Positions 15,871 through 63,987 of a stretch of DNA of 64,000 bases are shown here, piece by piece. The notes below the pieces were generated by a model. The model was not told where the DNA came from. It saw nothing but the letters and a program-made list of their open reading frames with translations, and did no database searches. A program made the position numbers and the translations under genes. The number at the start of each line of letters is the position of its first letter. The first letter of the stretch is position 1. Source of the DNA: Thermoplasmata archaeon (GTDB taxonomy: Archaea; Thermoplasmatota; Thermoplasmata; Lutacidiplasmatales; UBA184); NCBI GenBank assembly GCA_027365105.1, contig DAHXNZ010000008.1, forward strand, positions 129 through 64,128, written 5' to 3'.

Positions 15871-16749
15871 GTGTACATCATCGGGGGATCGGCCTCCACC
15901 TCCCTGGCCGAACGGGTGTCGCGAGAACTGGACAGCTGCCCCTTCTCCATCCCCTTCAGCAAGCGATTTCCGGACGGCGAGATGTATCTCCGGGTGGGAG
16001 GCAAGCTCGAGGGCGAGGATGTCGTCATCGTCCAGTCCACCCGCAACGACGCCGAAATCGTCGAGCTCCTGCTGCTGAGCGACGCGGCTCGCGAATCGAG
16101 TGCCCGGCGGGTGATCGTCGTGGTGCCCTACTTCGGCTATGCCCGTCAGGACCGGCGGTTTTACCCCGGAGAGGCGGTCAGCGCCCGCGCCCTGGCCCGG
16201 CACATCGAACTCGAGGCCGACGGGGTCATTACCGTCGACCTCCACTCGGCTCGTACCCTGGAGTCGTTCCACAAACCGGTCTACGAGGCCAGCGGCATCC
16301 CGGCGATCGCGCGGCTCCTCGCCCAACGACCGGTCGATCTTCTCGTCTCCCCCGACAAGGGGGGCGTGGACCGGGTCCGGCGGATGGCCGAGATCCTGAA
16401 GAAGCCCTGGATCGCCCTCGAGAAGCGTCGCATCGATAGCGAGCATGTCGAGCTCCGGGTACCCGAAGGTGGCCCCCAGCCCGTCCCCGGGGCCCATCTG
16501 GTCATTGTCGACGACGTCATCTCCACCGGGGGCACGATTGTGGCGGCGGCCCAGCTCCTGGCGCGCGCCGGTGCCGGCTCGGTGGCCGCCGCCTGCACGC
16601 ATGGCCTCTTCCTGAAGGACGCCTTCGAACGGATCAAGGCGGTGACCGACGGCATCTACTCCACCGACACCCTGGTGAACCCGGCGGAGAAGGCCTCGGT
16701 CGCACCGGACATCGCCAAGATCCTCACGGAACGGTTCGGGCCGGCGTAG
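15871..16749 (+). CDS. prs: ribose-phosphate pyrophosphokinase (PRPP synthetase)
   Basis: PRPP-binding loop (VIVDDVISTGGT) and Mg/ribose-5-P region (DLHS). GTG start at 15871 preceded by GGAG; the ORF-track start at 15814 adds a non-prs-like extension. Confidence 0.85.
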   Translation: MYIIGGSASTSLAERVSRELDSCPFSIPFSKRFPDGEMYLRVGGKLEGEDVVIVQSTRNDAEIVELLLLSDAARESSARRVIVVVPYFGYARQDRRFYPGEAVSARALARHIELEADGVITVDLHSARTLESFHKPVYEASGIPAIARLLAQRPVDLLVSPDKGGVDRVRRMAEILKKPWIALEKRRIDSEHVELRVPEGGPQPVPGAHLVIVDDVISTGGTIVAAAQLLARAGAGSVAAACTHGLFLKDAFERIKAVTDGIYSTDTLVNPAEKASVAPDIAKILTERFGPA

Positions 16750-16764
16750 GATCCGGCCGGCACC

Positions 16765-25974: not shown

Positions 25975-26010
25975 CGAACCCTCCTGCCCGACCGACCCGA
26001 TCCGACCCGA

Positions 26011-27078: not shown

Positions 27079-27217
27079 AGGAACCTACACCGAGGTTCAA
27101 AAATAAACTTTGCCCTCACGGTCCCGGCGGCCGGGCGAAGGACGGCGGCCCTCCGCCGCCGCGGGCTCCGTTCCCCCCCGGGGCGGGACGCGGTACGGAG
27201 GCACGGCCGGGGCCGGC

Positions 27218-41265: not shown

Positions 41266-41669
41266 CGGCCGTCGGGCCGGCCAATGCCGCAGGTTTCGGA
41301 GGCCCGAGTTCAACCGTCCCCTGTCCAACCTGAGGCGGACCCAAGGAGTTCGGTAGACGGGGGGGCCCGAGCGATTCCGCATCCGGGGAATCAGGTCGGC
41401 TTCAGGGGTTCTCTCCAGATCCCCCCGGGTGATGGGCTTGCCCTCGGTTACCTCAGGGGAAACGAGAGGGGGGTTGCCGATTCGGCTCCGCCGTCACGGG
41501 ATTGTGCCGCCGTGAGGGAGGAGTGGGTCCACAAGCGTAGGAATCCCGGTTCGCCCCCGACCGATCTTCGGGGGGGCGGTTTGTCAACCCATAAATAGCA
41601 CTGCCGGTGTCGGACGGTAATGCCAAGGTCATCTGGCTACCCAGAGCCAGTGGACGGGAGGCGGGTCCG

Positions 41670-42878
41670 ATGAGGCTTTGGATCTACATCGTGCGTCGGG
41701 CCGCCTTGCTGATCCCGGTGATCGTCGGGGTCATGACCATCACGTTCGTTCTGGTGAGCGCCCTACCCCTCCAGCAACGGCTGGTCTCCTACTACGGACC
41801 GAACCCCAAGGTACCCTACAATCCGGAGGTTTCCTGCCAGAAGTTGGGCATCGACAAACCGGGAAACTGCCGGAACCCGTTCTACTACAACGGGTTGCAT
41901 GCCTTGGGCTTGGATCGACCGATATTTGTCCAATGGGGGATTTACATTTTCAATTCTTTAACGTTCAATTGGGGATTCGTCGGTAATGGCACCGGGGCCG
42001 CCGGCCAGATCCCCTTGGCCGCGGGGCACCCCGTGATCCAAGTCTTGGGCTGGTTCCTCCCCTACACCTTGGAACTCGCGGCACTTTCTCTCATCATCAT
42101 CTTGGCCGTGGCCCTACCGTTGGGAAACCTTTCGGCGGTCAACCGGAACCGACCGATCGACCAAGCGGCCCGGGTGATGTCCTTCTCGGGGTATGCTTTG
42201 CCGCAGTTCCTCCTCGGTACTCTCCTGTTGATGGGGGTCGTGTTGCTCATTGTGGGAACGCTGGGCCATTCGATCTACTGTCCGGGCAGCCCGGGAAATT
42301 CCCCCTACTTCGACTTCTCCGGCTCTTGGCCCCCGTCCAACTGCTTCCCTTCCGGCCAATTCCCGAGTTGGCTTCAGAAGGGTCAGATCAGCAGCCCGAC
42401 AGGATTCCCGACGATCGACGCGATGATTCACGGCCAGTGGATCCTCGCGGGCGACACGCTCCTTCGGATCATCATCCCCGCACTCGTGGTGGCGTTCGGG
42501 ACGATCGCCGTGCTGCTCCGATTTGTCCGCAACAGCATGCTGGAAGTCCTCAACCTCGACTTTGTGCGCACCGCGCGCGCGAAGGGAGTCGCGGAAGCCA
42601 CGGTGGTCCGCAAGCACGCGGGCCGAAACTCCCTCAACGTCACGATCACGATTCTGGGATTGACCTTCGCGGCCTTCATCGGGGGATTTCCGGTGATTGA
42701 GTCGGTGTTCAACCTGAACGGAGTGGGGCGCCTCCTGGCGTATTCGGTCACGCTAACCCCCTACGACTTCGGCCTCATCTTCGGGAGCACGATCCTCTTC
42801 ACGTTCCTGGTGGTCGCCGCGAACATCATAGTGGATGTCCTGTATGCGTATTTGGACCCGCGGGTTCGGTTGGGATAG
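41670..42878 (+). CDS. ABC transporter permease (Opp/Dpp B-type) with a periplasmic insertion
   Basis: OppB-like N-terminus (LWIYIVRRAALLIPVIVGV), EAA-loop region (ARAKGVAEATVVRKHAGRNSL). GGAGG 8 nt upstream of the ATG; TATA-like CATAAATAG at 41590-41598. Confidence 0.85.
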   Translation: MRLWIYIVRRAALLIPVIVGVMTITFVLVSALPLQQRLVSYYGPNPKVPYNPEVSCQKLGIDKPGNCRNPFYYNGLHALGLDRPIFVQWGIYIFNSLTFNWGFVGNGTGAAGQIPLAAGHPVIQVLGWFLPYTLELAALSLIIILAVALPLGNLSAVNRNRPIDQAARVMSFSGYALPQFLLGTLLLMGVVLLIVGTLGHSIYCPGSPGNSPYFDFSGSWPPSNCFPSGQFPSWLQKGQISSPTGFPTIDAMIHGQWILAGDTLLRIIIPALVVAFGTIAVLLRFVRNSMLEVLNLDFVRTARAKGVAEATVVRKHAGRNSLNVTITILGLTFAAFIGGFPVIESVFNLNGVGRLLAYSVTLTPYDFGLIFGSTILFTFLVVAANIIVDVLYAYLDPRVRLG

Positions 42879-42893
42879 AGGGAGAAGAATCAG

Positions 42894-44024
42894 ATGTCCG
42901 CACTTCCATCCCCGTCAGCCGCCCCAACGCCACGGGTTCGCCGACCCAGTCCCAGGATCGCCCAATTCCGCAGGACTTGGTACTTCTTCCGCCGGAACAC
43001 CCTCGCGATGATTGGTCTGGGCATCCTGATCTTCTTCGTGGCCGTCTACGGATTTGCGTTCTTCTATCCGGCCTCGGCCACCCAGTTGCAGACCTACCAG
43101 GCCTCCAACGGGTTGCCGCCGAGCAGTTCCTCGATCTTCCCCGAAATCTGCACCTATACGGTTGGATCCCCGGCCCCGTTGCCGACCGGCTGCTACCCGA
43201 CGCCGCCGGGATTCCCTTCCGTGATAGGTCCGACACCGGCGCTTTCACCCTTGGGGCTGGGCCCCTTGCCGATGGGATCGCTCACGATCAGCGCCGGAGG
43301 CATCCAATTCTACGACATCTTTAATGGACTCATCAAGGGAACCGATTGGTCCCTCACCATCGCCTTCGGGGTCGTCGCCTCAGGGGCCCTGATTGGCGTC
43401 GCCGTCGGCATGGTTTCGGGCTACTTCGGCGGCGTGGTCGACGAGTCCATCATGCGGCTGACCGACATCTTCCTGTCGATCCCGGGCCTGCTCCTGGTCA
43501 TCATTGTCCTGGCCGTGTTTGCCCCGGAGATCACGTCGATCGACACCCGCGTTGCCTTGATCATCGGGGCGTTCGTGGTCATCTGGTGGCCCACGTATGC
43601 CCGCGTCGTACGCGGGCAGGTGCTGGTGATCCGGGAGCAACGGTACGTCGAAGCCGCCCGGGCGGCCGGGGCTCATAGTGGCCGGATCATCCGCAAGCAC
43701 ATCATGCCCAACAGCATCTATCCGGTCTTCGTCCAGATGTCCCTCGACGTCGGCTCGGTCCCGCTTCTGATTGCGGCCATCGTGTTCATCGGCTTCCAGA
43801 TTTTCCCCAATCAGAATTTCCCCGAGTGGGGAACGATTGCGGCGTATTCGGTTTCGTTCAATGTGGTGCAGTCATTCATCACGGCGTGCCAAACGGCATC
43901 CACATGCACCATCCCCTGGTGGCAGTTCTTCTTCCCAGGGCTCGCCCTGTTTCTGTTTGCGATCAGCGTGAACTTCTTCGCCGACGGACTGCGCGATGCG
44001 CTGGACCCGAGGTTGCGGAGGTAG
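42894..44024 (+). CDS. ABC transporter permease (Opp/Dpp C-type)
   Basis: OppC-like topology with an extended first extracellular loop and an EAA-like motif (EAARAAGAHSGRIIRKHIMPN). Confidence 0.85.
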   Translation: MSALPSPSAAPTPRVRRPSPRIAQFRRTWYFFRRNTLAMIGLGILIFFVAVYGFAFFYPASATQLQTYQASNGLPPSSSSIFPEICTYTVGSPAPLPTGCYPTPPGFPSVIGPTPALSPLGLGPLPMGSLTISAGGIQFYDIFNGLIKGTDWSLTIAFGVVASGALIGVAVGMVSGYFGGVVDESIMRLTDIFLSIPGLLLVIIVLAVFAPEITSIDTRVALIIGAFVVIWWPTYARVVRGQVLVIREQRYVEAARAAGAHSGRIIRKHIMPNSIYPVFVQMSLDVGSVPLLIAAIVFIGFQIFPNQNFPEWGTIAAYSVSFNVVQSFITACQTASTCTIPWWQFFFPGLALFLFAISVNFFADGLRDALDPRLRR

Positions 44025-44030
44025 CCCCGC

Positions 44031-45650
44031 GTGTCGGCTGTCACTCCCCGGGTCGCCTCTTCACCATCGGTTCCCGAGGCCACTGCTTTACCGACGACGA
44101 CGCCGTACGAGGGCTCAGAGCCTGCGAAGCCCGGCGACGTCATCCTGGACGTTCGGGACCTGTGCACGTACTTCTACACCTACGACGGGGTGGTCCGCGC
44201 CTTGGACGGAGTCTCCTTCAAAGTCCGGCGTGGCGAAACCGTCGGGATGGCGGGCGAAACCGGCTGCGGCAAGAGCGTCACGATGTTCTCCGCCTTGCGC
44301 CTGATCCCTGACCCCCCCGGCCGAACCGTCAGCGGGAAGGTGCTCTTCCAGGGAGCCAACCTGCTCTGGGGCATCGAGACGGAAGCAAAGATGAAACCGA
44401 TCGGCACGACCGGTCGGGTCAAAGTCAGCCGAAAGTTCCATCGGATCAAGGCGGCCAATGAGCGGATGATGGCCGTTCGGGGTCATGGAATCTCCATGAT
44501 CTTCCAGGAACCTACATCGGCCATGAACCCGCTCTTCCCGATCTACGACCAGATTGGGGAGACCTTGCTCCTGCACCGGGGCACGCGGATTCTGGAAACC
44601 CTCTTGGCCGCGACCCCGCAGGCGGCCGCCGTTCGGCCGGCCGTCGAGCGCCTGGCCGAAGCCGTCGAACGGAGGGCGGAGGTTGGAGAGATCCGGGCAC
44701 TGGCGAAGGCTGTCGGGAAGGCCATCGGGGTTCCCTCGGCCGAAACCCAGTTCTTCTACCGGGCCCGGGACGCCCGTCAGAACCCGGCCGGGGTGGGTCG
44801 CCAGTTGACTCGGATCCTTCACCGTTTTGCGCTCACCCGAGGCCAGCGGGCCTACCTGCACCACCAGCTCAACCTGATCCGGAGTCAGGACCGACTCAAA
44901 CAGATCTACATGACCGAGATGCGGTCCGGGAAGCTCGACCGCACCGCCAAGATCAACCTCCGCAACCGGATGCGGCTCCGGCGCTGGAGCCACTTCTATT
45001 TCGGGCTGTGGGGCATCCGGGGACGGGTCTCCAAGCCCCTCAAGGACGAACTGTTCTGGCAGACGGTCCGACTGCTGGAGGGGGTCCAGATCGCGAACCC
45101 TGTCCAGGTGGCCCGGGGCTACCCCTTCGAACTATCCGGCGGCATGCTCCAGCGGGTCATGATCGCCATGGCTCTCTCTTCCGAGCCGGTCCTCCTCATG
45201 GCCGATGAACCCACCACCGCTCTCGATGTCACCATCCAGGCCCAGATCCTGGATCTGATGCGGGACCTCAAGCACCGGGTCGGAATGGGAATCCTCCTCG
45301 TCACCCACGACCTCGCCGTGATCGCCGAGGTCGCCGATCGAGTCTGTATCATGTATGCCGGTCAGATCGTCGAGAATGCCGCCGTCCGGGATCTGTTCAG
45401 CCACCCGCTTCACCCCTACACCCAGGGACTCCTCGCCTCCATCCCCCGCATGGACCAGCCCGACAAGCGGCTGGACTCCATTCCCGGATCGGTCCCCAAC
45501 CTGATCTCGCCGCCGTCCGGTTGCCGGTTCCACCCCCGCTGTGCCTACGCGATGGAGATTTGCAAGAAGTCTCGGCCTCCGATGACTGACGAGGGGAACG
45601 GCCACCAGGTCGCCTGCTTCCTCTACCACGGCGCTCCGGTGACCGAATAG
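44031..45650 (+). CDS. ABC transporter ATP-binding protein (OppD-like) with a ~190-aa insertion between the Q-loop and the signature motif
   Basis: Walker [10 protein letters not shown]-loop IFQEP, signature LSGGMLQRV, Walker [14 protein letters not shown]-terminal oligopeptide-type CxxxC. At 539 aa it is ~200 aa longer than a typical OppD. Confidence 0.85.
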
Positions 45651-45659
45651 AAGGAACCC

Positions 45660-46826
45660 ATGGAAGACCCGACCTCCGAAACGGTGCTCGCGGCCCGCCA
45701 CATCCGAAAGTACTTTCCGATTCGGGGAGGTTTGCTCTCGAAGAGGGTCGGCGAAGTCCAGGCGGTAGACGGGATCAGCTTCGACATCCACCAGGGAGAG
45801 ACCGTCGGGCTCGTCGGGGAGTCCGGCTGCGGCAAGACGACCGCCGGCCGACTCCTCCTCCGCCTGATCGAGCCGACTTCGGGCCACGCCTTCTACCGCC
45901 CGCCGCCCGAAGTGATGGACCGCATCAACCAGCTCTACGACTCGATGGACGGCGACCCGGATTCGGGACGGCGGAATCCGCTGGCCCTCCAGGAGCTCGA
46001 TAAGCTGGCCGACCAGTATTCGCTGTACCGACGCAACGCGCGACGGATGCAAGAGCTGAGGGGCAAGCTCCAGATCGTCTTCCAGGATCCTTTCGGATCG
46101 TTGAGCCCGAGGATGCTGGTCAAGGACATCATTGCGGAACCCCTTGAGGTCCACCACATCGGGACCCCGAGGGAGCGGCTCCAGCGGGTCTCGGAACTGA
46201 TGCAGGAGGTGGGACTCAACCCGGAGCACCTCTGGCGGTTCCCGCACGAATTCTCGGGGGGGCAACGGCAACGGATCGGCATCGCCCGGGCCCTGGCGCT
46301 TCGCCCGGAGTTCATCGTGCTTGACGAGCCCACGAGCGCCCTCGATGTTTCGGTCCAGGCCCAGATCCTCAACATTCTCCAACGTCTGCAGGCCGACTAT
46401 GGAATCTCCTTCTTGTTCATCTCCCACCACCTTTCGGTGATCCGGGCCGTCAGCCGGCGAGTGGTCGTGATGTACCTGGGCCGGGTCGTCGAGCACGCCG
46501 ACACCGACTCGCTCTTTGCCCGACCGCTCCACCCCTACACGCAGGCCCTGCTCTCGGCCATCCCCATTCCCGATCCTACCCTCAAGCGGGAGCGGATCAT
46601 CCTCTCCGGCGACGTCCCGAGCCCCGCCGCCCCGCCGTCCGGCTGCCGGTTCCATACCCGCTGCCCGGCGGTCATGCCGATCTGCTCGCAGGTCGATCCG
46701 CCGCTGCTGCCCAATGGCCCCAACCATTGGGTCGCCTGCCATCTTTATCCGGGTTCCACGACGCGATCAACCCCGGTCTCGGCCCTCCCCGATGCCCCGA
46801 CGGCAGCGCCGGCGGCCGTCGGGTAA
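45660..46826 (+). CDS. ABC transporter ATP-binding protein (OppF-like) with a ~60-aa insertion after Walker A
   Basis: Walker [11 protein letters not shown]-loop VFQDP, signature FSGGQRQRI, Walker [13 protein letters not shown]-terminal GCRFHTRCP. Confidence 0.85.
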
Positions 46827-46855
46827 CGACGACGGGGCGTGGGGAGGCCGCCCCG

Positions 46856-47281
46856 ATGTTCGGGAAGGAGGACGACCCGGCTTCGGAGGCGTACGACTCC
46901 GATGCCTTGGACGTCGTCCGACGTGAGCGCAAGGCGGCCCTCGAAGATCCCGGCCCCAGTTGGCGCGAATGGTTCCTCTTCAGCGGTGCGAAGTGGTGGA
47001 TCGGGCTCGGATTCCTGATCGTCGATGCCTGGGTCATCACCAGCTGGTTCGATCCCTTCAACCCGGTCGGGATCGGGCTCTCCCTTGCAGGCTGCCTCTA
47101 CCTTGAGTACCTTGCCTATGGCTATCTATGGTACCGCCCGGCCGAACTGAGGCCGTCGGGAAGCCCGCCATTCCGGCCGACCTGGTACCGCCTTCGGGAG
47201 TTTGGTCGCTGGACACCGGAGCAGGCGGAAGCGCTTGCCGGGAACCTCCGCCGACCCACGGTGCACCGGGACGACTTCTAG
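46856..47281 (+). CDS. hypothetical small membrane protein
   Basis: Start at MFGKEDDP (46856); acidic N-terminus then two TM helices (FLFSGAKWWIGLGFLIVDAWVITSWF; VGIGLSLAGCLYLEYLAYGYLWY). Confidence 0.4.
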   Translation: MFGKEDDPASEAYDSDALDVVRRERKAALEDPGPSWREWFLFSGAKWWIGLGFLIVDAWVITSWFDPFNPVGIGLSLAGCLYLEYLAYGYLWYRPAELRPSGSPPFRPTWYRLREFGRWTPEQAEALAGNLRRPTVHRDDF

Positions 47282-47659
47282 GACGGCTCGGCCCGCGTTT
47301 GAATGTGGGCGCCTGCCCATCTCGGCCGATACGGCCGGGCCCTCGTCCCTCGCGGCTGCGCCTTGGGTTGACCTCCGAGCGGCTGGGCCCCCGGTCTCGA
47401 AGCGACCCTTCCGAGCTCGTGGACTGATGACGCCGTGCCCCCCTCCCGGGCTCCAAGGCGGTGGAGCCGGCTGAGCCGGGTCTAGCTATCCAAAGCACGA
47501 GCCGTTCCAGCCCGACCGGACTGAACTGCCTGGAACACGACCTCATTACGTGGAGACCACCGACACACATGGATGCCCAACGAGCAAGCGAGACCCCGGT
47601 GGCAACGCCGGCCATGCTGCCCTCCAGGGAGAGGAAAGCAGCCATCGGACCGGCGTCTG

Positions 47660-47720
47660 AATCGTCCAAAAGAAAAGAGGGATGGAAAGGGTTAGGACCT
47701 CCCCCGAGGGGGAGGTCGGG
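47660..47720 (-). terminator. intrinsic archaeal terminator: GC hairpin followed by a U-tract, downstream of the giant SBP gene
   Basis: On the minus strand: GACCUCCCCC-ucg-GGGGGAGGUCC, then UAACCCUUUCCAUCCCUCUUUUCUUUU. Shares the UAACCCUUUCC...CUUUUCUUU element with the terminator at 56438-56512. Confidence 0.6.
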
Positions 47721-47739
47721 CCCGGATCTTGCTTCCGAC

Positions 47740-50700
47740 CTACAGCATTCCGTTCCCGCTCCACATGAACCAGAGCTGGCCGGGAGCCACGGGGTTCGTG
47801 TCAATGCCCGCAGGGTTGACCCACGAGGCATACGACCCCACGCCGATCGGCTGCGTGTAGTACATGTACAGCGCCAGGTTGTTCGCGATGTGTTCCACCA
47901 GGTTGTAGTAGAGTGTCCGCTCCGCCCCGGTCGGCATGCTGGCCGCGAGCTGGTTGGCCCAGTTCATGACCGAGTACGCCGTTCCCTGGCAGTTGTTCGG
48001 GACCAGGCCAGAGTTCGCCCAGTAGACGAGGCTGGCGAAGGTCAGGGCGTTGTCGGTCGGGCAGTTGTACGAACCGCCGAACTGCTGGCCCACGAAGGTC
48101 TGGTAGAGAGCGGCCGAGTAGGTGTAGCTGCCGTTGGGGTAGTAGTAGGGGGCCATGTAATCGGTGGGGTCGGGGTAGTCGGGCAGCCACCCATCGATCG
48201 CGGAGGTGAACGCGCTGGTTCCCGGGGGCGCCGTCGAGGCCACGACGATCTGGCTGAACGTCGGCTGCCAGAGGCTCGGGCTGATCGCTCCACCCGTCAG
48301 CTTGACGATCTCCGCGTTCCAGGCCTGGATGGCGAGCGCCAAGGTCTGGGCTCCCTGCTCACCGACCATCGGGAAGGTACAGGGGCTCGCGGCGGTGCAG
48401 CTCGCCAGCTCCGGATCGTAGTACGGGTTCCCGGGGGCGTTGGTCGTGATCATCTTCCACCAGTACGCCGCGCTTCCATTCACGCTCGCGTCGAAGCTGG
48501 GATCGTGCCAGGTGTTGGTGGTCAGGTTCAGGCCGGGCCAGCTGATGTTCGTCGGGTAGTAGTTCCCCATGAACTGGGGAATCGCTCCTCCAAAGTTCAG
48601 GTCCAGGTTGATCCCGTCCACCGTGTTGAGCGAGTTCAAACTGTAGGCGTAGGGGAACGCCTGGCTGAAGAACTCACGCAGCCCGACATACGAGAAGAAG
48701 TTCCCGGGTACGTTCACCGGCAGCCCCGACTGCTGGGCGGTCTGGGTGGGATCGAACTGGTAGTAGTAGCCCATCTCGAAGGTCTCCAGTGTCGGCACCG
48801 TCAGGAGGCCCACCTTGCCCTGCTGGACGAGGTTGAGAATGGTCGGGATGTCGGTCGGGTAGAACCCGGCGACATCGGCCTGGCCGGCGATGTACTGCTC
48901 GATCCCTCCGGTGGAGGACGGCTCCCAGGCCACGTTGACATGGGCGGCGTACTTGCCTGGGGCCGGGTAGCAGTTCGGCTGGCCGGCGCAGTTGGGCTGG
49001 GCGTAGGCCGGGTTGGCCTGCAGGATGTAGCCCTCGCCCTGGTCCACGCTCTGGAGGTAGTAGGGGCCGCTGCCCACCGGGTTCCAGCGGACCGACGGCT
49101 GAGGCGCATACGGGCTGGTGGCGCCCAGCTCGATCACATTGTCATACGCCGTCGGGCTGACCGATTTGAGGTAGTTCTGGAAGGCCGATGAGTTCGTGCT
49201 CGTCGCGCCGCCGGGGAGCAGGCAGGGGCCGTCACCGTGCGCGGCGGAGGTGCCGCTGAAGCCCGGAACGCTGGCTCCCTGAGCGGTGTACCAGCCGCAC
49301 GAGACGATGGCTCCGCCGTTGGCATCGCCCACCAGCTGGAGGAAGAACGGCCAGTCCGAGCCGCTTCCGTCCGCCTTGAAGGTGATGCATCCGTGCGCCT
49401 GGGTCATCGCGGTCTGCGGGCAGAACTGGGTGTCGTTGACCAGCATCGATCCGAGGATGTTCTGGGGGGTGTTGTTCCACGGAGCGTGGAGTCCGCCGTC
49501 CCAGTTGGGGTTGCCATACGGAAGCAGCGACTGGCCGATGATCCATCCGTTGTAGACGTACTCGCTCGGAGTCTGCAGCCACAGCAGCGTCCGGGTGATC
49601 GAGAACATCACATCCGAGGGGTAGACTCCCCAGGACGCATGGGTCGCCGGGTCGTAGAAGGAGGCATTGCCGCTGATGACAAAGGTCCAGTAGAGCGGCT
49701 GGTGGTTGACGATGGTCAGGAGGCTGCTGCCGTACTCGTTGACGCACTGCTGGGTCCCGGGAACGCAGTTCGCCAGGACCGGGACGAAGCCCGCCGTGCT
49801 GGTTCCGTTGTAGTTCACCAACGTCTCGAAGACATTGTTCATGACCTCGGCCCCGACCGTCTCGTAATCGACGGCGGGATCCAGGCTGGTGGCTCCACCC
49901 GGGGCAATCTCATAGGCGTCGATTGTTCCAGGGTGAGGGCTCACCGACTGCTTGCCTTGACAGTAGGCGCAGCCCAGGCTCGTACCCGCGGCGCCCACGT
50001 AGACGGTCCAGGTGTAGTTCTGGTAGATCGTCGTGCCACTCGGGGTGGTGATCGGGCCCACGAAGGTGAGCCAGTAGACCCCTGCCGTCGAGAAGGAGTA
50101 GGTCGCGCGCGCCTGGGTCGAGGTGGCGTTGCTCGAAACCAAGGTGCCGCCGGTCGACGTGATGGAGGGAGCGCCGGCCACATATCCCGGCGCGGTCGGC
50201 AGGCTCGAGTAGGACGCGCCCACCGAGATGGGTCCCTGACCGGCTTGGATCCAAGGCCGGGCGACAGTCGTGCCCACCAAGCCGTTCGAGAAGGTCGTGG
50301 CCAGCACGGGGTACTGCCCGCTCGCGCTGTTCGCGAGCGAGGGGACGACCTGTACCGGGAAGAGGTAGCCCGGACCCTGGTGGGTGACGCCGCTCACGTT
50401 CGCCGTGGCGTACATCACGTAGACCCCGAGGCCCGAGTAGGTGTGGGTGAAGGTCGGGGAGGTTTGGGTCGTGGACGTTCCATCGCCCCAGTAGACCGTG
50501 TAGCTCGAAGCCACACCGCCGCCCGAGAGCGAAACCGTCGCCGGAAGAGACTGGCCCTGCTGGAGTTGGATCATGCTCTGCCCGTAGCCTGGCTGGTAGG
50601 CCACGAAGAGCACGACGTTGTTCAGATTGGTCGTGGAGTGGCACACCGGGCTCGTCGCGGGCTGGCAGGTGGAGACGGTATTGCTACCCTGGCCCGCCAA

Positions 50701-50841
50701 CGCTCCGATCCCAACGTACCCGACTCCGCCGACGACGACAATGACCACAATCATGACCACTGCCGCCATCGTTGTCGAGATACCCCTTCGGCCCAAGCCG
50801 CGCGGCTGCGCGGTCGGGCTCTGTTCATCTGCTGTCTGCAT
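47740..50841 (-). CDS. oversized extracellular solute-binding protein (ABC family 5, Opp/Dpp-type) with an N-terminal signal anchor and a ~350-aa N-terminal extension
   Basis: Basic N-terminus plus TM (RRGISTTMAAVVMIVVIVVVGG), then a Ser/Thr/Gly/Tyr-rich beta-like region with paired Cys. A family-5 SBP-like core follows, with many N-x-S/T sequons. Convergent with the Opp permease/ATPase operon. Start taken at 50841, the first ATG after the predicted TSS. Confidence 0.7.
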   Translation of the reverse strand: MQTADEQSPTAQPRGLGRRGISTTMAAVVMIVVIVVVGGVGYVGIGALAGQGSNTVSTCQPATSPVCHSTTNLNNVVLFVAYQPGYGQSMIQLQQGQSLPATVSLSGGGVASSYTVYWGDGTSTTQTSPTFTHTYSGLGVYVMYATANVSGVTHQGPGYLFPVQVVPSLANSASGQYPVLATTFSNGLVGTTVARPWIQAGQGPISVGASYSSLPTAPGYVAGAPSITSTGGTLVSSNATSTQARATYSFSTAGVYWLTFVGPITTPSGTTIYQNYTWTVYVGAAGTSLGCAYCQGKQSVSPHPGTIDAYEIAPGGATSLDPAVDYETVGAEVMNNVFETLVNYNGTSTAGFVPVLANCVPGTQQCVNEYGSSLLTIVNHQPLYWTFVISGNASFYDPATHASWGVYPSDVMFSITRTLLWLQTPSEYVYNGWIIGQSLLPYGNPNWDGGLHAPWNNTPQNILGSMLVNDTQFCPQTAMTQAHGCITFKADGSGSDWPFFLQLVGDANGGAIVSCGWYTAQGASVPGFSGTSAAHGDGPCLLPGGATSTNSSAFQNYLKSVSPTAYDNVIELGATSPYAPQPSVRWNPVGSGPYYLQSVDQGEGYILQANPAYAQPNCAGQPNCYPAPGKYAAHVNVAWEPSSTGGIEQYIAGQADVAGFYPTDIPTILNLVQQGKVGLLTVPTLETFEMGYYYQFDPTQTAQQSGLPVNVPGNFFSYVGLREFFSQAFPYAYSLNSLNTVDGINLDLNFGGAIPQFMGNYYPTNISWPGLNLTTNTWHDPSFDASVNGSAAYWWKMITTNAPGNPYYDPELASCTAASPCTFPMVGEQGAQTLALAIQAWNAEIVKLTGGAISPSLWQPTFSQIVVASTAPPGTSAFTSAIDGWLPDYPDPTDYMAPYYYPNGSYTYSAALYQTFVGQQFGGSYNCPTDNALTFASLVYWANSGLVPNNCQGTAYSVMNWANQLAASMPTGAERTLYYNLVEHIANNLALYMYYTQPIGVGSYASWVNPAGIDTNPVAPGQLWFMWSGNGML

Positions 50842-50888
50842 GCGTTTAGCACCCCTCTCGGGGCCTGAAAACGCCACTCAAAAGGTGG

Positions 50889-56437: not shown

Positions 56438-56512
56438 GCTCAAGAAAGAAACAGAAAGAAAAAGGGGGAAGGGAAAGGGTTAGGTCGGTGGAGAGGTCCC
56501 CTCCACCGACAG
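56438..56512 (-). terminator. intrinsic archaeal terminator: 10-bp GC hairpin followed by a long U-tract, downstream of the giant surface-protein gene
   Basis: On the minus strand: GUCGGUGGAG-gggaccu-CUCCACCGAC, then CUAACCCUUUCCCUUCCCCCUUUUUCUUUCUGUUUCUUUCU. Also downstream of the convergent SHMT-like gene. Confidence 0.6.
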
Positions 56513-56533: not shown

Positions 56534-59500
56534 CTACGAGCTGATCCCGTGCTCCGTCTTGGCGTGTTCCTTCAGTTCCTCAGGGGTGGCGAAAGACCGG
56601 TTGCAGACGTTGCACTGGTTCGCCGGCGCGGTGCTCGACTGCTGCTGCCAGGCCTGGGCCGGAGTGCTCTTCGGGGTCGCCATCATCGAGCGCGCCAGAA
56701 GGAGCGCCACGATCATGCCGATGATCAGACCAACCACCAGCAGGATGGTTCCCGAGGAGCCGGCGTTGAGTCCCTTGAACAGCGAGCCGTTGCTGTAGAC
56801 TGTGGTGTTCTGGTAGACCGTTCCGCCCGACGAGACCACCGTCAGGTCACCGTGGATGCTCATGGTCCCGTAGCTGGTCACCAAGGTCAGCACCCAGGGG
56901 TAGACACCGGCGTTGGCAGCGTACCAGACCGCCGTCGTCGGAACGGTCGGGCTGGCCCAGGCCAAGCTCGAATTGAACAGGACCACCGTCGTGGTCGGCG
57001 CCGACACCACGATCTCCACGCTTTGGACGTACTGAGCCGTATAGTACGCCGTGAACGAGATGTTTCCGGTCGACATGCTCGTACTGGGGCTCAGCAGGGC
57101 GAGCGCGAGCGGGCTGAAGATGATGGAGGTCGTCTGGCTAGTGGTGGTGTTCAACTCCCCAAAGACGCTCACATAGGTGGTGAGCTGGGCCGCGTGGAGG
57201 GTCAGGAGCGGGCAGTTCAGCAGCGCCTGGGTGCCGATCACGATCGGGGTCACCGCGAACGAGTAGGAGGTGATGCCGGGCGTGATCGAGGCGTTCTCCG
57301 ACGCGAAAGCACAGGTCGAACCGGTCAGACTGTCGCTGATCTGCATCCACAGGCTCACGTTCGCCTGGCTGATCCCGACTCCTACAACGCTGATGGTCAC
57401 GTTGTCGAAGAACGGCAGCATGGTATAGTTCCCGAGCACCGTGGTGGTGACAACGCTGGCATACCCATACGCCACGGACTGAGACGACGGGCCGCTGACG
57501 ACCAGCATCCCCGAGGAGATGTTGACCCCATAGCCGGGCACCGAGTCGATGGTGAACGGATAGGTCCCGTTCTCCTGATAGAGGACCAGCGAAGACGGTC
57601 CGGCCGAAGTCGTCCCGCTCGCACTCACGCCGTCCAGGGTGACCCCCCATCCAATACCCGCCGGAAGGCCGGTCTCGGTGAAGGTCACCGGTTCAAGCGG
57701 AAGGTAGGTCAGCGCCATTGCATCGCCTCCGTAGGTGATGAGTCCGCCATCGGTGTAAACCACGCCGAACGGGTTCGCCGGGGTTCCGTAGTTCGCCCAG
57801 AAATTTCCAGCGACCCCGAAGCCGCCCAGGATGTTCTCGACCGGGAAGACCGACGAGAGGTTCCAACTGTTGGTCGTGAAGAGGGCGAACGCACCCGTGT
57901 AGATGCTGAACGTCGGCATGATCGCGGGCTCCTGGTAGACGCCGAAGTAGTTGTTGATCACCTCAGTGCCGTTCTGGTCGAGGAGCATTCCCATCAACGG
58001 GAAGGTGTAGGGCGGGAAGTTGAGAGGGTTCGGGGCGCTCGGAGCGGAGCCGTTGATAAAGTTGTTTTCAACGAGGTCGTTGGTCCCGCCGAAGAGAATC
58101 AGCGCCTGGCTCTGGGTGTTGAAGGTGTTCCCATAGATGTAGTCCCCGGAAGAGTTCCAGAAGAGCACGTTCGAGTAGGTCGAGAAGAACGGCATGGAGT
58201 AGGCCTCGACGTAGTAGGAGGCCCAACCCGAAATCTGGTAACTGCCCGTCAACTCGAGGTTCTGGACCTCAAAGAACTGCATCTGGAGGTTGTTGGTTGC
58301 CGGGAAGCCGTAGATCTTCTGGTAGAAGAGCGCGTAGACTCCCGAGAACGGCGCGAGGTAAGAGAGCGCCGGAGCGGAGATGATCGTGTAGGCGGTGGTG
58401 TTCACGAAGAAGACCCCGTCAAAGACCGGGTAGGTGTAGTCGTTGACGACCCCGAAGGACGCGTTGAGCAGGCTGCCCTGGGAACTCGGCATCACATAGG
58501 GGCTGGTGGAAGTCCCGCTTCCCGAGACCGCAAGAGCGCCGAGCTGCGCGTTCGAGAACGCATAGAGCGGCGTGTAGACCTCAGTGTTGCTCACGAACAG
58601 GGTCACCGACAAGGTCGCCGGGATTCCCGCCGTCAGGGTGAACGTCCCGGAAGCCTGGCTGTAGCCGGACAGTTCCACGAGGTAGGAGTAGGTGCCCGGG
58701 TTGAGCAGGTAGGTCAGCGACGAAGTCGCACCGGCCACGACCACGCCGGTGGAGGCCGTCGGGGCCCACTGGGCATTCGAGGCATTGACCCCCGCCCCGT
58801 TGTTGACGAGGAAGAGGAACGCGTTGCTCGGGTCGAGCGTCACGGTGAGGGTCGTTGTCGTCTGAGGGGTGCCCCCGACCGCATTCGACACGTTCCAGAG
58901 CCCCTGCACGATCGACGCCCCGGCGTTGATCATCGCCTCGGGCATCCCGTTCGCACCGGTCTCCCAAGAGACCGCGGCACCGGCGACCGTCTCACCGGTC
59001 TCACCCCCGACATTGTAGGCCGAAGGTACTGACTGGTAGGAGGAGGTCGTGGTGTCCCAGTACATGAGCGACATGGTCGCATTGCCGGAGATGACGTTGG
59101 TGCTGCTGCCTCCACCGGGGCCGCCCATGATCATCTCGAAGTCGTTGGGCAGTCCGAGCGGGTTGTACCCGTACCCATCGGCCTGGTACATCGAGGCGGG
59201 AGCGGGGGTCCCGCCGGCCACCGTCGAGTTGAAGACGACGTAGTCGTAGGAGCCGCTGACCGTCTTGCCGGCGCTGTTGGTCACGGAGTAGTTGAAGAAG
59301 ACCGCGTTTCGCCCGCCGATCACTGTCGAATTGAGGTAGGAAGTCAGCGAGAACGGATAGGAGACCGTCATCGGAGCGGAGTAGGCGTAGTAGAACTGAG
59401 TCCCCACCTGGGTCCCGTTGGGCCCGTGAGCGTAGAAGACATTGGGCGAGAGGTAGCTCGCCGGGCTCGAGAAGTTCCAGACATTGTCCTCGAACTGGAG

Positions 59501-60130
59501 CTCGCCCGTGTTGATGTTGTAGGTGACCACATTCTGGGTCCAGAACTGGTAGCTGGCGCTACCAAAGAGTGACACACCGACGTCCACGGCATTCAGCTGA
59601 ACCCCGTAGAGCTGGGGGTTCGCCGTATCGAAGTAGAGCACCTGCAGGTTGCTCGGGGCAAAGGTTCCCGCAACGCTGGTGGTGTTCAGCATGTAGGGGG
59701 TGATCGTCCCGGAGTTGTTCTCCAGACCGAACTCACCGATACCCATCGGGGCCGGGCCGCCCTGGTAGGTGAGGCGCACATGGCCGTTGGCCAGCGTCGG
59801 GTTGAGGTTGTTGAAGTCCGGGAGGTAGACGGCACGTGCCGGAACGCCCAACGAAGCCGCGGTCTTCAGGATCTGCTCGGCCCGCCCGGAAAGGGTCGGG
59901 GCCTTGGTGTTCAAGGCGTGGGTGACGCTCGGGGCCGTCGAGGCCGTGGAGGGTGAGGGAACGGCCGGTCCCGCCGTCGCCCCGGAGGCGGAAGGGAGCG
60001 GCGCAGCCCCGATTCCGGCAACGGGAGTGACGCTGAACGCGGCGACCGACATGATCGCTACGACGGCCACAAGTCCGATCGTTAGCTTCTTCCACGCGCC
60101 CGGCGGTAGTCTATACATGGCGGCTCCCAT
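56534..60130 (-). CDS. giant secreted cell-surface glycoprotein (S-layer-like) with a C-terminal TM anchor and a cytoplasmic C2H2 zinc-finger tail
   Basis: Signal peptide (MGAAMYRLPPGAWKKLTIGLVAVVAIMSVAAF), ~1100 aa of Ser/Thr/Asn/Gly/Tyr-rich sequence with >50 N-x-S/T sequons, then a TM helix (ILLVVGLIIGMIVALLLA). The tail CNVCNRSFATPEELKEHAKTEH fits C-x2-C-x3-F-x5-L-x2-H-x4-H. Start taken at 60130. Confidence 0.8.
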   Translation of the reverse strand: MGAAMYRLPPGAWKKLTIGLVAVVAIMSVAAFSVTPVAGIGAAPLPSASGATAGPAVPSPSTASTAPSVTHALNTKAPTLSGRAEQILKTAASLGVPARAVYLPDFNNLNPTLANGHVRLTYQGGPAPMGIGEFGLENNSGTITPYMLNTTSVAGTFAPSNLQVLYFDTANPQLYGVQLNAVDVGVSLFGSASYQFWTQNVVTYNINTGELQFEDNVWNFSSPASYLSPNVFYAHGPNGTQVGTQFYYAYSAPMTVSYPFSLTSYLNSTVIGGRNAVFFNYSVTNSAGKTVSGSYDYVVFNSTVAGGTPAPASMYQADGYGYNPLGLPNDFEMIMGGPGGGSSTNVISGNATMSLMYWDTTTSSYQSVPSAYNVGGETGETVAGAAVSWETGANGMPEAMINAGASIVQGLWNVSNAVGGTPQTTTTLTVTLDPSNAFLFLVNNGAGVNASNAQWAPTASTGVVVAGATSSLTYLLNPGTYSYLVELSGYSQASGTFTLTAGIPATLSVTLFVSNTEVYTPLYAFSNAQLGALAVSGSGTSTSPYVMPSSQGSLLNASFGVVNDYTYPVFDGVFFVNTTAYTIISAPALSYLAPFSGVYALFYQKIYGFPATNNLQMQFFEVQNLELTGSYQISGWASYYVEAYSMPFFSTYSNVLFWNSSGDYIYGNTFNTQSQALILFGGTNDLVENNFINGSAPSAPNPLNFPPYTFPLMGMLLDQNGTEVINNYFGVYQEPAIMPTFSIYTGAFALFTTNSWNLSSVFPVENILGGFGVAGNFWANYGTPANPFGVVYTDGGLITYGGDAMALTYLPLEPVTFTETGLPAGIGWGVTLDGVSASGTTSAGPSSLVLYQENGTYPFTIDSVPGYGVNISSGMLVVSGPSSQSVAYGYASVVTTTVLGNYTMLPFFDNVTISVVGVGISQANVSLWMQISDSLTGSTCAFASENASITPGITSYSFAVTPIVIGTQALLNCPLLTLHAAQLTTYVSVFGELNTTTSQTTSIIFSPLALALLSPSTSMSTGNISFTAYYTAQYVQSVEIVVSAPTTTVVLFNSSLAWASPTVPTTAVWYAANAGVYPWVLTLVTSYGTMSIHGDLTVVSSGGTVYQNTTVYSNGSLFKGLNAGSSGTILLVVGLIIGMIVALLLARSMMATPKSTPAQAWQQQSSTAPANQCNVCNRSFATPEELKEHAKTEHGISS

Positions 60131-61494: not shown

Positions 61495-62599
61495 CCGGGT
61501 CGACGGGGGGGCGTTCCCTCCCGCCGCGGTTCCGGTAGTACTGGAGCGGGTGCTGAAGCCACGGGTCGAAGCACCGGTCGTCCCGACGGCGATCGTCCGG
61601 CGAGGCCGCCGCCGGATCGCCGTCGCGCACGCAGAGGCCGTGGCTCCGCAGGGTGGCGCACTCGGGAGGCTTGTAGCCTTCCCCTCCGCCGTGCTGGGTG
61701 ATATGCTCGACCTGGTAGCGGGTGATCGACTCGTCGAAATCGGGCGCCCCCCGGAAGGCGTCGACGATCGTCTCCCGGTCGGCGCCAACCCGATGCAGGA
61801 ACGCCGCCAGGGCGAACCGGCCGGCGTGGGAGAGGTTCTCCCCCGCCTCGAGCGTCCGGCGCATCTTCCGCAGGCAGGGAGGGAACCAGTCGGGTCGGAT
61901 CGATCCCAGACCGGGCGCGGGCCCCGCGGACGGAGAGGGGATCCGGTCGAGGAGCTCCGCTTCGAGGGGCGCCTCCGACTCCCGGATCGCGCGGACGATC
62001 GACGGGTCGAGCGGGATCGGCTCGGCGAGGGTCCGCCGGATCCCTTCCTCGAGGATCCGGGCGCCCCGGGCGGGATCGACCCGGACGGTGCCACGACGCA
62101 GCCGCTGGCCGGCGAGCCGGAAGTCGGCCTCACGGATCGGGGTGGCCAGGCGGAGGTAGGCGATGAGGGGCAGCCGGATCTCCCGGTCGACCGCCTCCAG
62201 GGCAAACCCGAGCCGGCGGCCGACCTCGGCGATTTCGTCGGCCCCGGCCCGCTCGAGACGGGCGCTCGCCCGCTTCGACTCGGCGACGGCCCAGCGACGC
62301 CGCGCGGCCGGATGGGCGAAGGCGCTGAGCGCGTACCGCGCGAACAGGAAGGAGAGGAACTTTTCCTCCTCCGACGCGCGGTCCAGTTCTTCGACCGCCG
62401 CGGCACCCCGGGGATCCCCGGCCGCGGCCCGGATCCGGGCCCGGCCGACCAGCCGGCAGAGCTCGAACGCGGGATCCCCCAGCAGCTCCCGGACCGACGC
62501 CCCGAGTCCCGAGGCGATCGTCGCGGCGCCCGGCAAGAACGGGTACGCGGCGAACAGCGTCCGTTCGTCTACCCTAGACGAGGCACGATGAATTGCCAT
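61448..62599 (-). CDS. priL: DNA primase large subunit PriL
   Basis: C-terminal Fe-S domain pattern (HGGGEGYKPPECATLRSHGLC...C) and an N-terminal helical domain. Recognised by motif memory, not searched. Overlaps the upstream S2P gene by 31 nt. Confidence 0.6.
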   Translation of the reverse strand: MAIHRASSRVDERTLFAAYPFLPGAATIASGLGASVRELLGDPAFELCRLVGRARIRAAAGDPRGAAAVEELDRASEEEKFLSFLFARYALSAFAHPAARRRWAVAESKRASARLERAGADEIAEVGRRLGFALEAVDREIRLPLIAYLRLATPIREADFRLAGQRLRRGTVRVDPARGARILEEGIRRTLAEPIPLDPSIVRAIRESEAPLEAELLDRIPSPSAGPAPGLGSIRPDWFPPCLRKMRRTLEAGENLSHAGRFALAAFLHRVGADRETIVDAFRGAPDFDESITRYQVEHITQHGGGEGYKPPECATLRSHGLCVRDGDPAAASPDDRRRDDRCFDPWLQHPLQYYRNRGGRERPPVDPATETGAGSGRSGSPD

Positions 62600-63987
62600 A
62601 CGATCAGCAGCACGACGATCAGCGACGAGGTGACGGCGACCCGGCCCCCGAAGTCGTCAAGCCGGGCCGAACTCCAGCCCTTCCGGAGCCGGGCCATGAG
62701 GGCCGCGGCGTAGTCCCGGACCAGGAGCCCGCCGTCCAAGGGGATCAGCGGGAGCGCGTTCGAGGCGCCCAGGAGGAGGTTCATCCAGCTCAGCCAGTAG
62801 AGGAGGTTGGCCCCGATCCAGAAGGTCCCGGGATCGACCGAGGCCCAGATCCCGGTGAGGTGAAAGAATCCGGTCGTGGGGGCGGCGACCGGCTCGAGGG
62901 TCGCGAGGGGCAGGACGAGCCAGTTGACGAGCCCGGCCTGCGGTGTCGCCGCGCTCGTGAGCGGGCTCACCCACGTCGCCTTGAGCTGGGTCGGGGTCAG
63001 GTAGTTCACCGCGACGCCGAGGAATCCCCGGGTACCGTTGGTGGGATTCCGGGCGAGCGGCACGAGTTCGGTCACCACCCGACCGGCGCGGTCCGAATAG
63101 AACCCCACCGTGACGACCTGGTGCGGGTGGGAGGCGGCCAGTAGGTTCTCGAACTGGAGGGTCGAGGTGATCGGCGTGCCGTTGACCGCGGTGATGATGT
63201 CGCCCGGCGCGAGCGAGGCGTTCGCCGCCGGGGAGTGGGCGACGACCTGGACGACCCCGACCCCGTTCGCGTTCGCCGCGATGCCGCCGCTCAGGACCGC
63301 AGCGAGGAGGAGGAAGAAGACGACCGCCAGGGCGAAGTTCGCGAGGATCCCGGCGGCCGCGATCCGGTCGCGCGATCGGCGCGAGGCGCGCTGCATCTCC
63401 TCGTCGTCCTGCTCGACGAACGCCCCGATCGGAACGACGCACCAGAGGATGCCGAGGCTCTTCACCCCCACCTTCTGGGACCGGGCGAGCACGCCGTGCA
63501 TGAGCTCGTGGAGCACGATCCCGATCACCAACGCGACCAGTCCGTAGCCGATCGGGATGATCGGGTTGATGCCGGGGAGACCGAGCGCCTCCTGGGGGGT
63601 GGGCGCCTGGGCGGCGGTCAACGACAGGGAGACGTAGGCGTCGAGCAGCAGGAGCGCGATCATCGCGACCATCGACGCGGCGGCCAGGAGGATCCCCAGG
63701 TCGCCCGCGGCGCTCCAGAGGCGGCGGAACCGGCCCCAGCGGTCGAGCGCGGCCCGACCGCGTCGGGTCTTGATCATCAGCGCGGGACCGAGGAGCGAGA
63801 GGCTCCGGTCCGCGCCGATGAGGCCGGCCCGGTACAGTCCGTAGACGGCGAGCCCGTAGGCGACGATGACCAGGGCGACGATGAGATAGCCGTTGATGGC
63901 GAACACTCCCGAGCCGCTCCCCCGTTCGGACCGGAAGGCCCCATATGGCGCTTTGCCACCCGGCGGGGGGAGGGACGACCGGGGCAC
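62569..63987 (-). CDS. site-2 protease family (M50) membrane metalloprotease with a PDZ domain
   Basis: HExxH (HELMHG) inside a TM helix, a PDZ-like segment (AHSPAANASLAPGDIITAVNG), and a second zinc-ligand region near LPLIPLDGG. May extend beyond the window end. Confidence 0.75.
   Translation of the reverse strand: MPRSSLPPPGGKAPYGAFRSERGSGSGVFAINGYLIVALVIVAYGLAVYGLYRAGLIGADRSLSLLGPALMIKTRRGRAALDRWGRFRRLWSAAGDLGILLAAASMVAMIALLLLDAYVSLSLTAAQAPTPQEALGLPGINPIIPIGYGLVALVIGIVLHELMHGVLARSQKVGVKSLGILWCVVPIGAFVEQDDEEMQRASRRSRDRIAAAGILANFALAVVFFLLLAAVLSGGIAANANGVGVVQVVAHSPAANASLAPGDIITAVNGTPITSTLQFENLLAASHPHQVVTVGFYSDRAGRVVTELVPLARNPTNGTRGFLGVAVNYLTPTQLKATWVSPLTSAATPQAGLVNWLVLPLATLEPVAAPTTGFFHLTGIWASVDPGTFWIGANLLYWLSWMNLLLGASNALPLIPLDGGLLVRDYAAALMARLRKGWSSARLDDFGGRVAVTSSLIVVLLIVWQFIVPRLG

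Follow-up and report, generated by a model that had tools for sequence, protein, structure and literature searches.

We analyzed a 64,000-nucleotide stretch of DNA from a Thermoplasmata archaeon of the Lutacidiplasmatales lineage UBA184 (assembly GCA_027365105.1, contig DAHXNZ010000008.1, positions 129 to 64,128 of the forward strand), referred to below as the window. One of its genes, at 56534..60130 on the minus strand, encodes a type-I surface glycoprotein, its glycosylation being predicted from sequence, that carries a conserved C2H2 zinc finger on its intracellular tail. The protein is composed of two parts: residues 16–878 correspond to a complete secreted thermopsin, a predicted protease, and residues ~900–1198 to the mature part of a separate, sizeable Thermoplasmata family of putative transmembrane (TM)-anchored proteins. 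The evidence for both the fusion and the family is firm. Each part is known (A5 protease, Ig-like domains, and C2H2 finger); the combined architecture is new, and we found no paper on this architecture or family in the literature on thermopsins, on C2H2 proteins in archaea or Thermoplasmata, or on transmembrane forms. The explanation that best accounts for the whole, and that we consider probable, is a cell-surface-tethered thermopsin held by a conserved TM anchor whose finger docks a cytoplasmic protein.

According to the open reading frame (ORF) listing and the translation, the ORF runs without interruption from an ATG at 60130 to a stop codon at 56534–56536 (1,198 codons plus stop; all parts of the gene given below are on the minus strand). 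A longer form with a GTG start, up to 60544, runs into the divergent AAA_18 kinase gene and is ignored by the gene callers of the orthologs, whose starts correspond to M1 or M5. Public collections hold an identical protein (P0001) and three orthologs at 75–85% identity (P0002–P0004). A preliminary description of the window, made from the letters alone, had proposed a single long ORF with an N-terminal hydrophobic leader and a single C-terminal TM segment, and this layout stands. By Kyte-Doolittle hydropathy (window >1.8), the first hydrophobic segment covers residues 14–42 and is preceded by R7/K13/K14; it belongs to an N-terminal signal or anchor segment (aa 1–42; 60005..60130) that is modeled by AlphaFold as a helix at aa 13–29 and aligns with the leader of the secreted thermopsin P0008. 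The second one, at ~1123–1153, is the sole C-terminal TM segment, with an AlphaFold helix at 1123–1150 (56681..56764; GTILLVVGLIIGMIVALLLAR). The mean predicted local distance difference test score (pLDDT) of the full-length model is 81.7. Instead of the more than 50 glycosylation sequons announced in the preliminary description, we counted 28 N-x-S/T motifs (x not P): the ectodomain holds 27, and none falls in aa 43–117. This is a modest enrichment over the 16.4 ± 3.5 expected in composition-preserving shuffles (P ~0.0025). The whole protein contains only four cysteines, C940 and C973, which are the only ones in the ectodomain, and C1173 and C1176. The N-terminal leader, the 27 ectodomain sequons, the Arg following the TM helix, and a putative thiolate zinc site needing the cytoplasm together argue for a type-I topology with a cytoplasmic finger. 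The tail measures about 48–51 aa rather than 45.

The ectodomain, first described as an S-layer-like region rich in Ser, Thr, Asn, and Tyr, is not featureless, as it holds a full thermopsin domain. Residues 118–384 (58979..59779) match the Pfam Thermopsin profile (PF05317, peptidase family A5) from position 5 to 255 of 256, with an E value of 1.2e-56 and 192.6 bits for a cut-off of 25. AlphaFold models this catalytic domain as all-beta with a pLDDT >90. A search of 5.8 billion proteins returned more than 750 homologs, and those with a name are thermopsins from metagenome-assembled genomes of Thermoplasmata. The similarity is not restricted to the A5 domain: residues 16–878 run colinear (39% identity) with the whole of P0008, a free secreted thermopsin of 860 aa, as far as its residue 847. 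The window protein shares its leader, its A5 domain, and its all-beta C-terminal extension with free thermopsins (MEROPS A5; Sulfolobus acidocaldarius thermopsin and Thermoplasmata paralogs), of which those of 840–880 aa show 37–41% identity to its N-terminal 880 residues. A Ser/Thr/Pro/Ala-rich disordered linker and a short helical pro-region (aa 43–117; 59780..60004) precede the domain, with pLDDT values below 50 over aa 27–78 and a helix at aa 80–93. The thermopsin-associated C-terminal region (aa 385–880; 57491..58978), delineated by weak Pfam matches, by AlphaFold, and by colinearity with P0008, comprises a beta-sandwich at ~425–515 (weak PEGA match), a beta-helix-like part at ~520–800 (weak NosD match), and a further beta-sandwich at ~810–880. 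The Thermopsin domain and the colinearity with free thermopsins therefore assign the ectodomain to a protease family and not to S-layer-type repeat proteins. The candidate Q-D/N-V motif of thermopsins is present as Q199-N-V, which is no proof of activity.

The window protein differs from other thermopsins by its C terminus, a foreign module of ~300 aa with a zinc-finger tail. Among the best 120 whole-protein matches, only the four closest (75–100% identity, 1198–1203 aa) carry the finger; the homologs at up to 41% identity are either anchorless or end in a TM helix and a Pro-rich or basic tail, and none has a finger. The preliminary description could place this architecture in no described family, but the last ~300 residues belong to a sizeable one. 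Using aa 900–1198 as a query, we retrieved 43 proteins, mostly of 330–515 aa, that are 34–47% identical to the window module over ~99% of the query, with E values from 1e-15 to 1e-70. The tail is conserved: 42 of the 43 end in the TM helix, a PAQPW motif, and the finger. For instance, aa 901–1196 are 44% identical to aa 79–380 of the stand-alone 381-aa protein P0130 (MGA8710007.1). A family profile, which scores the ortholog P0002 at 369.9 bits, was searched against 1.84 billion cluster representatives (clusters at 50% identity) and matched 238 of them at E ≤1e-3, 135 at E ≤1e-10, and 112 at E ≤1e-30. The module is C-terminal in all but a few of the matches listed, in host proteins ranging from 365 to 1694 aa. 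A tail-specific scan of JGI metagenomes revealed 80 more loci, ~66 of which are family members. In addition, at least four Thermoplasmata genes found by a degenerate finger DNA scan of GTDB species genomes encode non-thermopsin proteins of 378–844 aa with the same stalk, TM helix, PAQPW motif, and terminal finger. The NCBI pipeline labels some members "C2H2-type zinc finger protein," and the whole window protein has no match in NCBIfam. Scanning viral contigs for the tail revealed none that carries it, which lends no support to a viral origin of the module. In the literature searched, we found no account of type-I surface proteins that share a classical C2H2 finger at their cytoplasmic end, a conserved feature here of a family of 112–135 clusters at 50% identity.

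All the elements of the family are found at aa 900–1198. Two Ig-like beta-sandwiches come first (aa 900–1004, 57119..57433, containing C940 and C973; and aa 1005–1099, 56834..57118, with the conserved motif YTAQYV); in an AlphaFold model of aa 900–1198 (mean pLDDT 87.4), residues 900–1004 and 1009–1099 exceed a pLDDT of 90. They are followed by a juxtamembrane stalk modeled at low confidence (aa 1100–1122; 56765..56833), with the sequons N1108-T-T and N1114-G-S, by the TM helix with its LLVxGLxxG motif, by an Arg, by the cytoplasmic juxtamembrane PAQ(P/A)W motif and a flexible linker (aa 1151–1170; 56621..56680; pLDDT <50), and by the C-terminal finger (aa 1171–1198; 56537..56620), which ends in HG-x1-4. 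The invariant columns of a 42-member alignment all lie outside the ectodomain; they are those of LLVxGLxxG, which contains GxxxG, of the Trp of PAQPW, and of the finger; the two stalk sequons (alignment N294 and N300, conserved in at least 90% of the members) and the Arg after the helix are nearly invariant. Across 144 distinct family tails, 29–52 aa separate the TM motif from the first Cys.

The preliminary description had also recognized the finger, and it was right that the tail fits the C2H2 consensus. CNVCNRSFATPEELKEHAKTEH (aa 1173–1194) is the sole match to C-x2-C-x12-H-x3-5-H in the six frames of the window. In 40 mononucleotide shuffles of the window, loose matches occurred 0.28 times on average and the strict form containing F/L never. 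The residues are spaced as C1173-x2-C1176-x3-F1180-x5-L1186-x2-H1190-x4-H1195, four residues from the C terminus. With Pfam zf-C2H2 (PF00096), whose gathering cut-off is 25.2 bits, the tail of 51 aa scores 26.7 when taken alone and 20.9 when the whole protein is searched. A phmmer search of the PDB with the tail gave 146 matches (best E = 4e-7), and the 60 best listed are all classical C2H2 fingers, with ZBTB20, Zif268/EGR1, ZBTB17, CTCF, and WT1 at the top. Two AlphaFold runs, without zinc, both predicted the beta-beta-alpha fold (bridge residues 1172 and 1179, helix 1183–1194) with pLDDT values of 88–94 in the C-terminal model and 84–88 in the full-length one. In the 144 tails, C, C, F, H, and H are conserved at 100%, K19 at 98%, L14 at 96%, E13 at 92%, and the Asn preceding the first Cys at 91%. 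The finger always lies 2–5 residues from the C terminus (HG-M/I-x), and the G after the last H is invariant.

The finger thus shares with eukaryotic C2H2 fingers of the Kruppel/TFIIIA/Zif268 type the exact C-x2-C-x3-F-x5-L-x2-H-x4-H consensus and the predicted fold. Unlike these, it is single, located at the extreme C terminus of a membrane protein, and acidic where canonical fingers contact bases, which makes it an unlikely reader of DNA. Helix positions −1/2/3/6 are T, E, E, and E in the window finger and T, E/D/A, E, and A/E/D across the family; the net charge over the 144 tails averages −1.3, ranges from −3 to 0, and is never positive. DNA-binding C2H2 transcription factors contact bases through basic or polar residues at these positions, usually with fingers in tandem; we therefore rejected such a factor. 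Of the intracellular partners first envisaged, nucleic acid or protein, the former is unlikely and the latter is still the most plausible: owing to these acidic positions, we infer that the partner docked by the finger is a protein, either cytoplasmic or membrane-peripheral, and neither DNA nor RNA.

The genomic context indicates how the fusion arose. Around the stand-alone members, the gene order is RtcB, M50-PDZ site-2 protease (S2P), PriL, CDP-alcohol transferase, and AAA_18 kinase on one side of the anchor gene, and SHMT, Csl4, methyltransferase, PRC barrel, DNA ligase, and Rpe on the other. The stand-alone family members of ~375–383 aa (P0130, P0153, and P0127) are encoded between the AAA_18 kinase and SHMT genes, which is the slot of the window gene. 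The same slot is occupied in L021, in L093, and in most of the ~66 metagenome loci with enough flank; in the exceptions, L190, L212, and L118, the anchor gene is a few kilobases away in the same block. This shared slot makes the window gene a positional ortholog of the anchor gene, whose own leader and first ~75 residues are replaced by thermopsin sequence. Stand-alone members annotated as C2H2-type zinc finger proteins have the same sandwiches, stalk sequons, TM motif, PAQPW, and finger, together with their own signal peptide; at ~330–515 aa, they have no enzyme domain, whereas in the window protein their N-terminal ~75 residues give way to ~880 aa of thermopsin. Thermopsin homology stops at aa 878 and anchor-family homology begins at aa 890–901; between them, within the fusion junction (aa 881–899; 57434..57490), lies the sole interdomain stretch of low confidence in the AlphaFold model, aa 882–888. 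Domain accretion is cleanly illustrated by the window gene, in which a whole secreted protease has been grafted onto an anchor.

This event was probably not unique. P0299 (1,222 aa), another thermopsin-anchor fusion, is encoded in this slot in a distant genome, whose SHMT is 45% identical. Its thermopsin shares only 30% identity with that of the window protein, lower than the free thermopsins do, which makes an independent fusion more likely than inheritance. Furthermore, the same anchor carries a sedolisin in four proteins of 1605–1694 aa (P0267, P0268, P0273, and P0282), which have a pro-kumamolisin activation domain and, for three of the four, an S8/S53 match. From these parallel thermopsin and sedolisin fusions, the anchor seems to be a platform used more generally to display acid proteases outside the cell.

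To estimate selection, we computed the ratio of nonsynonymous to synonymous substitutions (dN/dS) between orthologs of the window gene by the Nei-Gojobori method. Ortholog DNA was available from L001 (GCA_027377115.1), L002 (GCA_054610335.1), and L004 (a Logan assembly), in addition to L141 from a JGI metagenome. In these four loci, the gene is one continuous frame with the same neighbors as in the window, so that the fusion architecture is seen in five independent assemblies (NCBI, JGI, and Logan). dN/dS is 0.14–0.20 for the whole protein and falls to 0.00–0.06 both for the TM helix and, measured against the most distant ortholog, for the finger. No other part of the protein is as constrained as these two. 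The finger codons show 9–11 synonymous and 0–1 nonsynonymous changes against that ortholog (3.3 for L002). This synonymous-only pattern indicates that the finger is translated in this frame. Conservation of the anchor in a block of core genes and a constraint on the TM helix and finger tighter than on the ectodomain point to an interaction at the inner membrane face of these wall-less, uncultured archaea.

We propose the following scheme. A complete secreted thermopsin would have taken the place of the signal peptide and N-terminal linker of a ~375-aa anchor protein made of two Ig-like beta-sandwiches, a stalk predicted to be N-glycosylated, a single membrane-spanning helix, and a cytoplasmic tail of ~50 aa that bears the finger. 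The thermopsin would thus be held at the outer membrane face of this high-GC soil archaeon, where it would degrade extracellular protein, and the resulting peptides could be imported, for example, by the Opp/Dpp transporter encoded 6–15 kb away. The invariant GxxxG helix probably packs on another TM helix, from a second copy of the protein or from a partner, and the finger would be a small zinc-stabilized knob on a flexible leash that docks a protein. The anchor is probably more than a passive tether. The transporter is an oligopeptide ABC system of the Opp/Dpp type at 41607–50877 of the window, with two permeases (41607–44024), two ATPases (44031–46826), and a 1,045-aa SBP_bac_5 binding protein with an N-terminal TM anchor (47740–50877, minus strand). 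The guanine-cytosine (GC) content is 0.615–0.658 in this cluster, 0.63 in the thermopsin gene, and ~0.70 in the rest of the window. Lutacidiplasmatales have been described as having ~69% GC and abundant extracellular S53 and thermopsin peptidases (PMC9287336), and the window, at 69–70%, matches this GC content. The Opp/Dpp operon and this peptidase repertoire make surface display for peptide scavenging plausible.

Several observations weigh against this scheme. The active-site residues of thermopsins are unknown (Rawlings 2013, PMC3842238), so active homologs cannot be told from inactive ones by sequence. The invariant glycines of the TM helix fit intramembrane cleavage as well as helix packing. 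In 8 of the 152 members with the strict TM motif, and in more of the distant representatives, a Ser/Gly/Thr-rich tail replaces the finger, which is thus not indispensable to the anchor. Finally, the conserved neighbors are housekeeping genes; none encodes an obvious cytoplasmic ligand, and no partner was found among them. Should there be a partner, the finger, with its 30 residues, offers a ready bait for finding it.

Besides docking, the tail might serve in signaling, which we regard as unlikely. After shedding of or damage to the ectodomain, an intramembrane protease would cut the TM helix and release a ~60-aa finger peptide, or free a regulator held by the finger, as in bacterial zinc-binding anti-sigma (ZAS) factors processed by RseP/RasP. 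The candidate enzyme is the M50-PDZ site-2 protease, with its HELMH motif, encoded four genes away (62569–63987, minus strand) and kept in essentially all loci with enough flank. The two invariant TM glycines could be helix-destabilizing, as required in S2P substrates, the strongest constraint bears on precisely the TM helix and tail, and a folded knob on a flexible leash resembles a sequestration module. However, the S2P gene lies within a housekeeping block of wholly conserved order, so its proximity weighs little, and in L190 and L212 it stayed in place when the anchor gene shifted by several kilobases. A single acidic finger without basic flanks would be a poor DNA binder, archaea have no sigma factors, and we identified neither a site-1 protease nor a cleavage motif. 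ZAS or zf-HC2 anti-sigma factors have an N-terminal zinc domain with an HxxxCxxC helical fold and are processed by site-2 proteases. The window protein resembles them in combining a cytoplasmic zinc domain, one TM helix, an extracytoplasmic domain, and a nearby S2P gene; it differs by its opposite topology and its zinc fold.

Alternatively, the finger could have no specific ligand and act as a zinc-locked plug that, together with the interfacial Trp motif, stabilizes the anchor or aids its insertion or quality control. The finger invariably sits 2–5 residues from the C terminus and 29–52 residues after the TM motif, part of the family tolerates a hydrophilic low-complexity tail instead, and no partner gene is evident nearby, all of which would suit such a structural or topogenic role. 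We nevertheless find it improbable. Exposed residues that are not zinc ligands (N-1, S2, V3, T10, E13, and K19) are 85–98% conserved in the 144 sequences, which exceeds what a generic plug needs, and hundreds of related thermopsins do with a TM helix and a Pro-rich or basic tail.

In a more far-reaching reading, the TM helix and C2H2 tail would constitute a transmembrane signaling or coupling module specific to wall-less soil Thermoplasmata, in which the finger holds a cytoplasmic regulator or a cytoskeletal or divisome protein at the membrane, or is released by S2P after damage to the ectodomain. We hold this to be decidedly unlikely. Should it be true, it would be the first membrane-tethered C2H2 signaling system in archaea and a case of protein recognition by a prokaryotic C2H2 finger at the membrane, and the repeated acid-protease fusions would then let proteolysis outside the cell, or the sensing of nutrients, elicit a response inside it.

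We hold it very unlikely that this is a glycoprotein of an S-layer or coat, with a tail that fixes the lattice to the cell and a noncatalytic thermopsin-like part. The enrichment of the ectodomain in sequons and the positional conservation of the stand-alone anchor in many Thermoplasmata assemblies are compatible with a coat function, and inactivity is conceivable since the catalytic residues of thermopsins are unknown. Conversely, we found no match to an S-layer family in Pfam or NCBIfam, the N-terminal 880 residues are colinear with free secreted thermopsins, and the sedolisin fusions to the same anchor point to the display of enzymes and not to a lattice. As for an assembly, frameshift, or gene-calling artifact that would have merged the ORF of a surface protein with a distinct small zinc-finger gene, which the preliminary description had left as an option and which could be suspected because free C2H2 mini-proteins of 30–100 aa with the same pattern are common in archaea, the comparative data refute it and leave it practically no probability: the continuous ORF recurs in the five assemblies, the TM helix and finger share one frame in more than 140 distinct family members, the synonymous-only changes show translation in that frame, and a hairpin and T-rich tract directly follow the stop codon.

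Compared with known systems, the tethered thermopsin with a docking finger has partial counterparts. In Haloferax volcanii, CdpC is a membrane-associated zinc-ribbon protein that anchors FtsZ1 (bioRxiv 10.64898/2026.07.16.738847). Like the tail of the window protein as we propose it, CdpC presents a small zinc-stabilized domain at the inner membrane face, with a disordered linker, and docks a cytoplasmic protein. It differs by its C3H/C4 zinc ribbons, by an amphipathic helix instead of a TM helix, and by the lack of an ectodomain, and it has no sequence relationship to the window protein. The PGF-CTERM/archaeosortase signals similarly consist of a motif, a TM helix, and a basic residue at the C terminus of varied surface proteins in one lineage. 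The window protein has no PGF motif, and its tail is ~50 aa long with a folded finger and not a short basic stub. We rejected a PGF-CTERM sorting signal on these grounds: there is no NCBIfam match, GLNAGSSGT precedes the TM helix, and the ~50-aa tail contains a predicted folded domain.

Other archaeal proteins combine similar fingers with different contexts. Four-TM proteins of Nitrosopumilales and Nitrosocaldus (L059 5909–6496, minus strand; L088 6390–7004, plus strand) likewise have a C2H2 finger at their C terminus, with CSRCNIEFASDEELKRHVIRFH or a similar sequence; membrane-tethered C-terminal C2H2 fingers are thus not restricted to Thermoplasmata. In Nanohaloarchaea, a 259-aa ORF (L022) has a C2H2 finger at residue 4 and a TM segment at ~42, an opposite topology that recalls anti-sigma-like layouts. 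Free mini-proteins of 30–100 aa with the pattern C-x2-C-x3-F-x3-EEL-x2-H-x4-H are very common in Nitrososphaerota and Bathyarchaeia among the matches listed (L005–L124). They include highly conserved families of ~44 aa (CPYC.SKF...EELSKHIDRIH; CRICSSSFQNPEELRNHRMVAH).

The anchor family itself is diverse. Members of 700–940 aa contain additional beta-sandwich repeats without a Pfam match. A finger-less subfamily (P0162, P0220, P0230, P0235, P0238, P0239, P0243, P0252, and P0258–P0265) keeps the TM motif and PAQPW, and its Ser/Gly/Thr-rich tails end in a recurring "...NPPS" or "...T(N/S)KP," which may be an alternative cytoplasmic signal. In L190 and L212, where SHMT abuts the AAA_18 kinase gene and the slot is empty, the anchor gene lies beyond the methyltransferase and PRC-barrel genes. 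L118 has a 559-aa paralog beside ribulose-phosphate 3-epimerase, which is the only Pfam assignment among the surrounding genes, so that they include no candidate partner.

Genomes with a stand-alone anchor harbor, between RtcB and S2P, a gene for a 1,278- to 1,314-aa sedolisin-PKD protease (L125 177–4055, L128 188–4024, and L130 85–4029) that ends in a plain TM helix and a basic tail, with no finger. This gene is absent from the same interval in the thermopsin-fusion clade (L001, L002, and L004). In the window, two ORFs of 1,471 and 847 aa (15097–19512, minus strand, and 25144–27687, plus strand) have no Pfam match and may be spurious antisense frames in 70% GC DNA. Downstream of the fusion gene, a GC-rich hairpin and a pyrimidine/T-rich tract, read from the sequence at 56441..56510 (minus strand), form a possible terminator. 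The 12-bp hairpin itself (56484–56510) appears in both the minimum free energy and centroid folds, and the folding energy of the region is no better than that of shuffles (z = −0.05). Tandem genes for the anchor module in L139 (353–2314) and L152 (6560–8702) indicate local duplication within the family.

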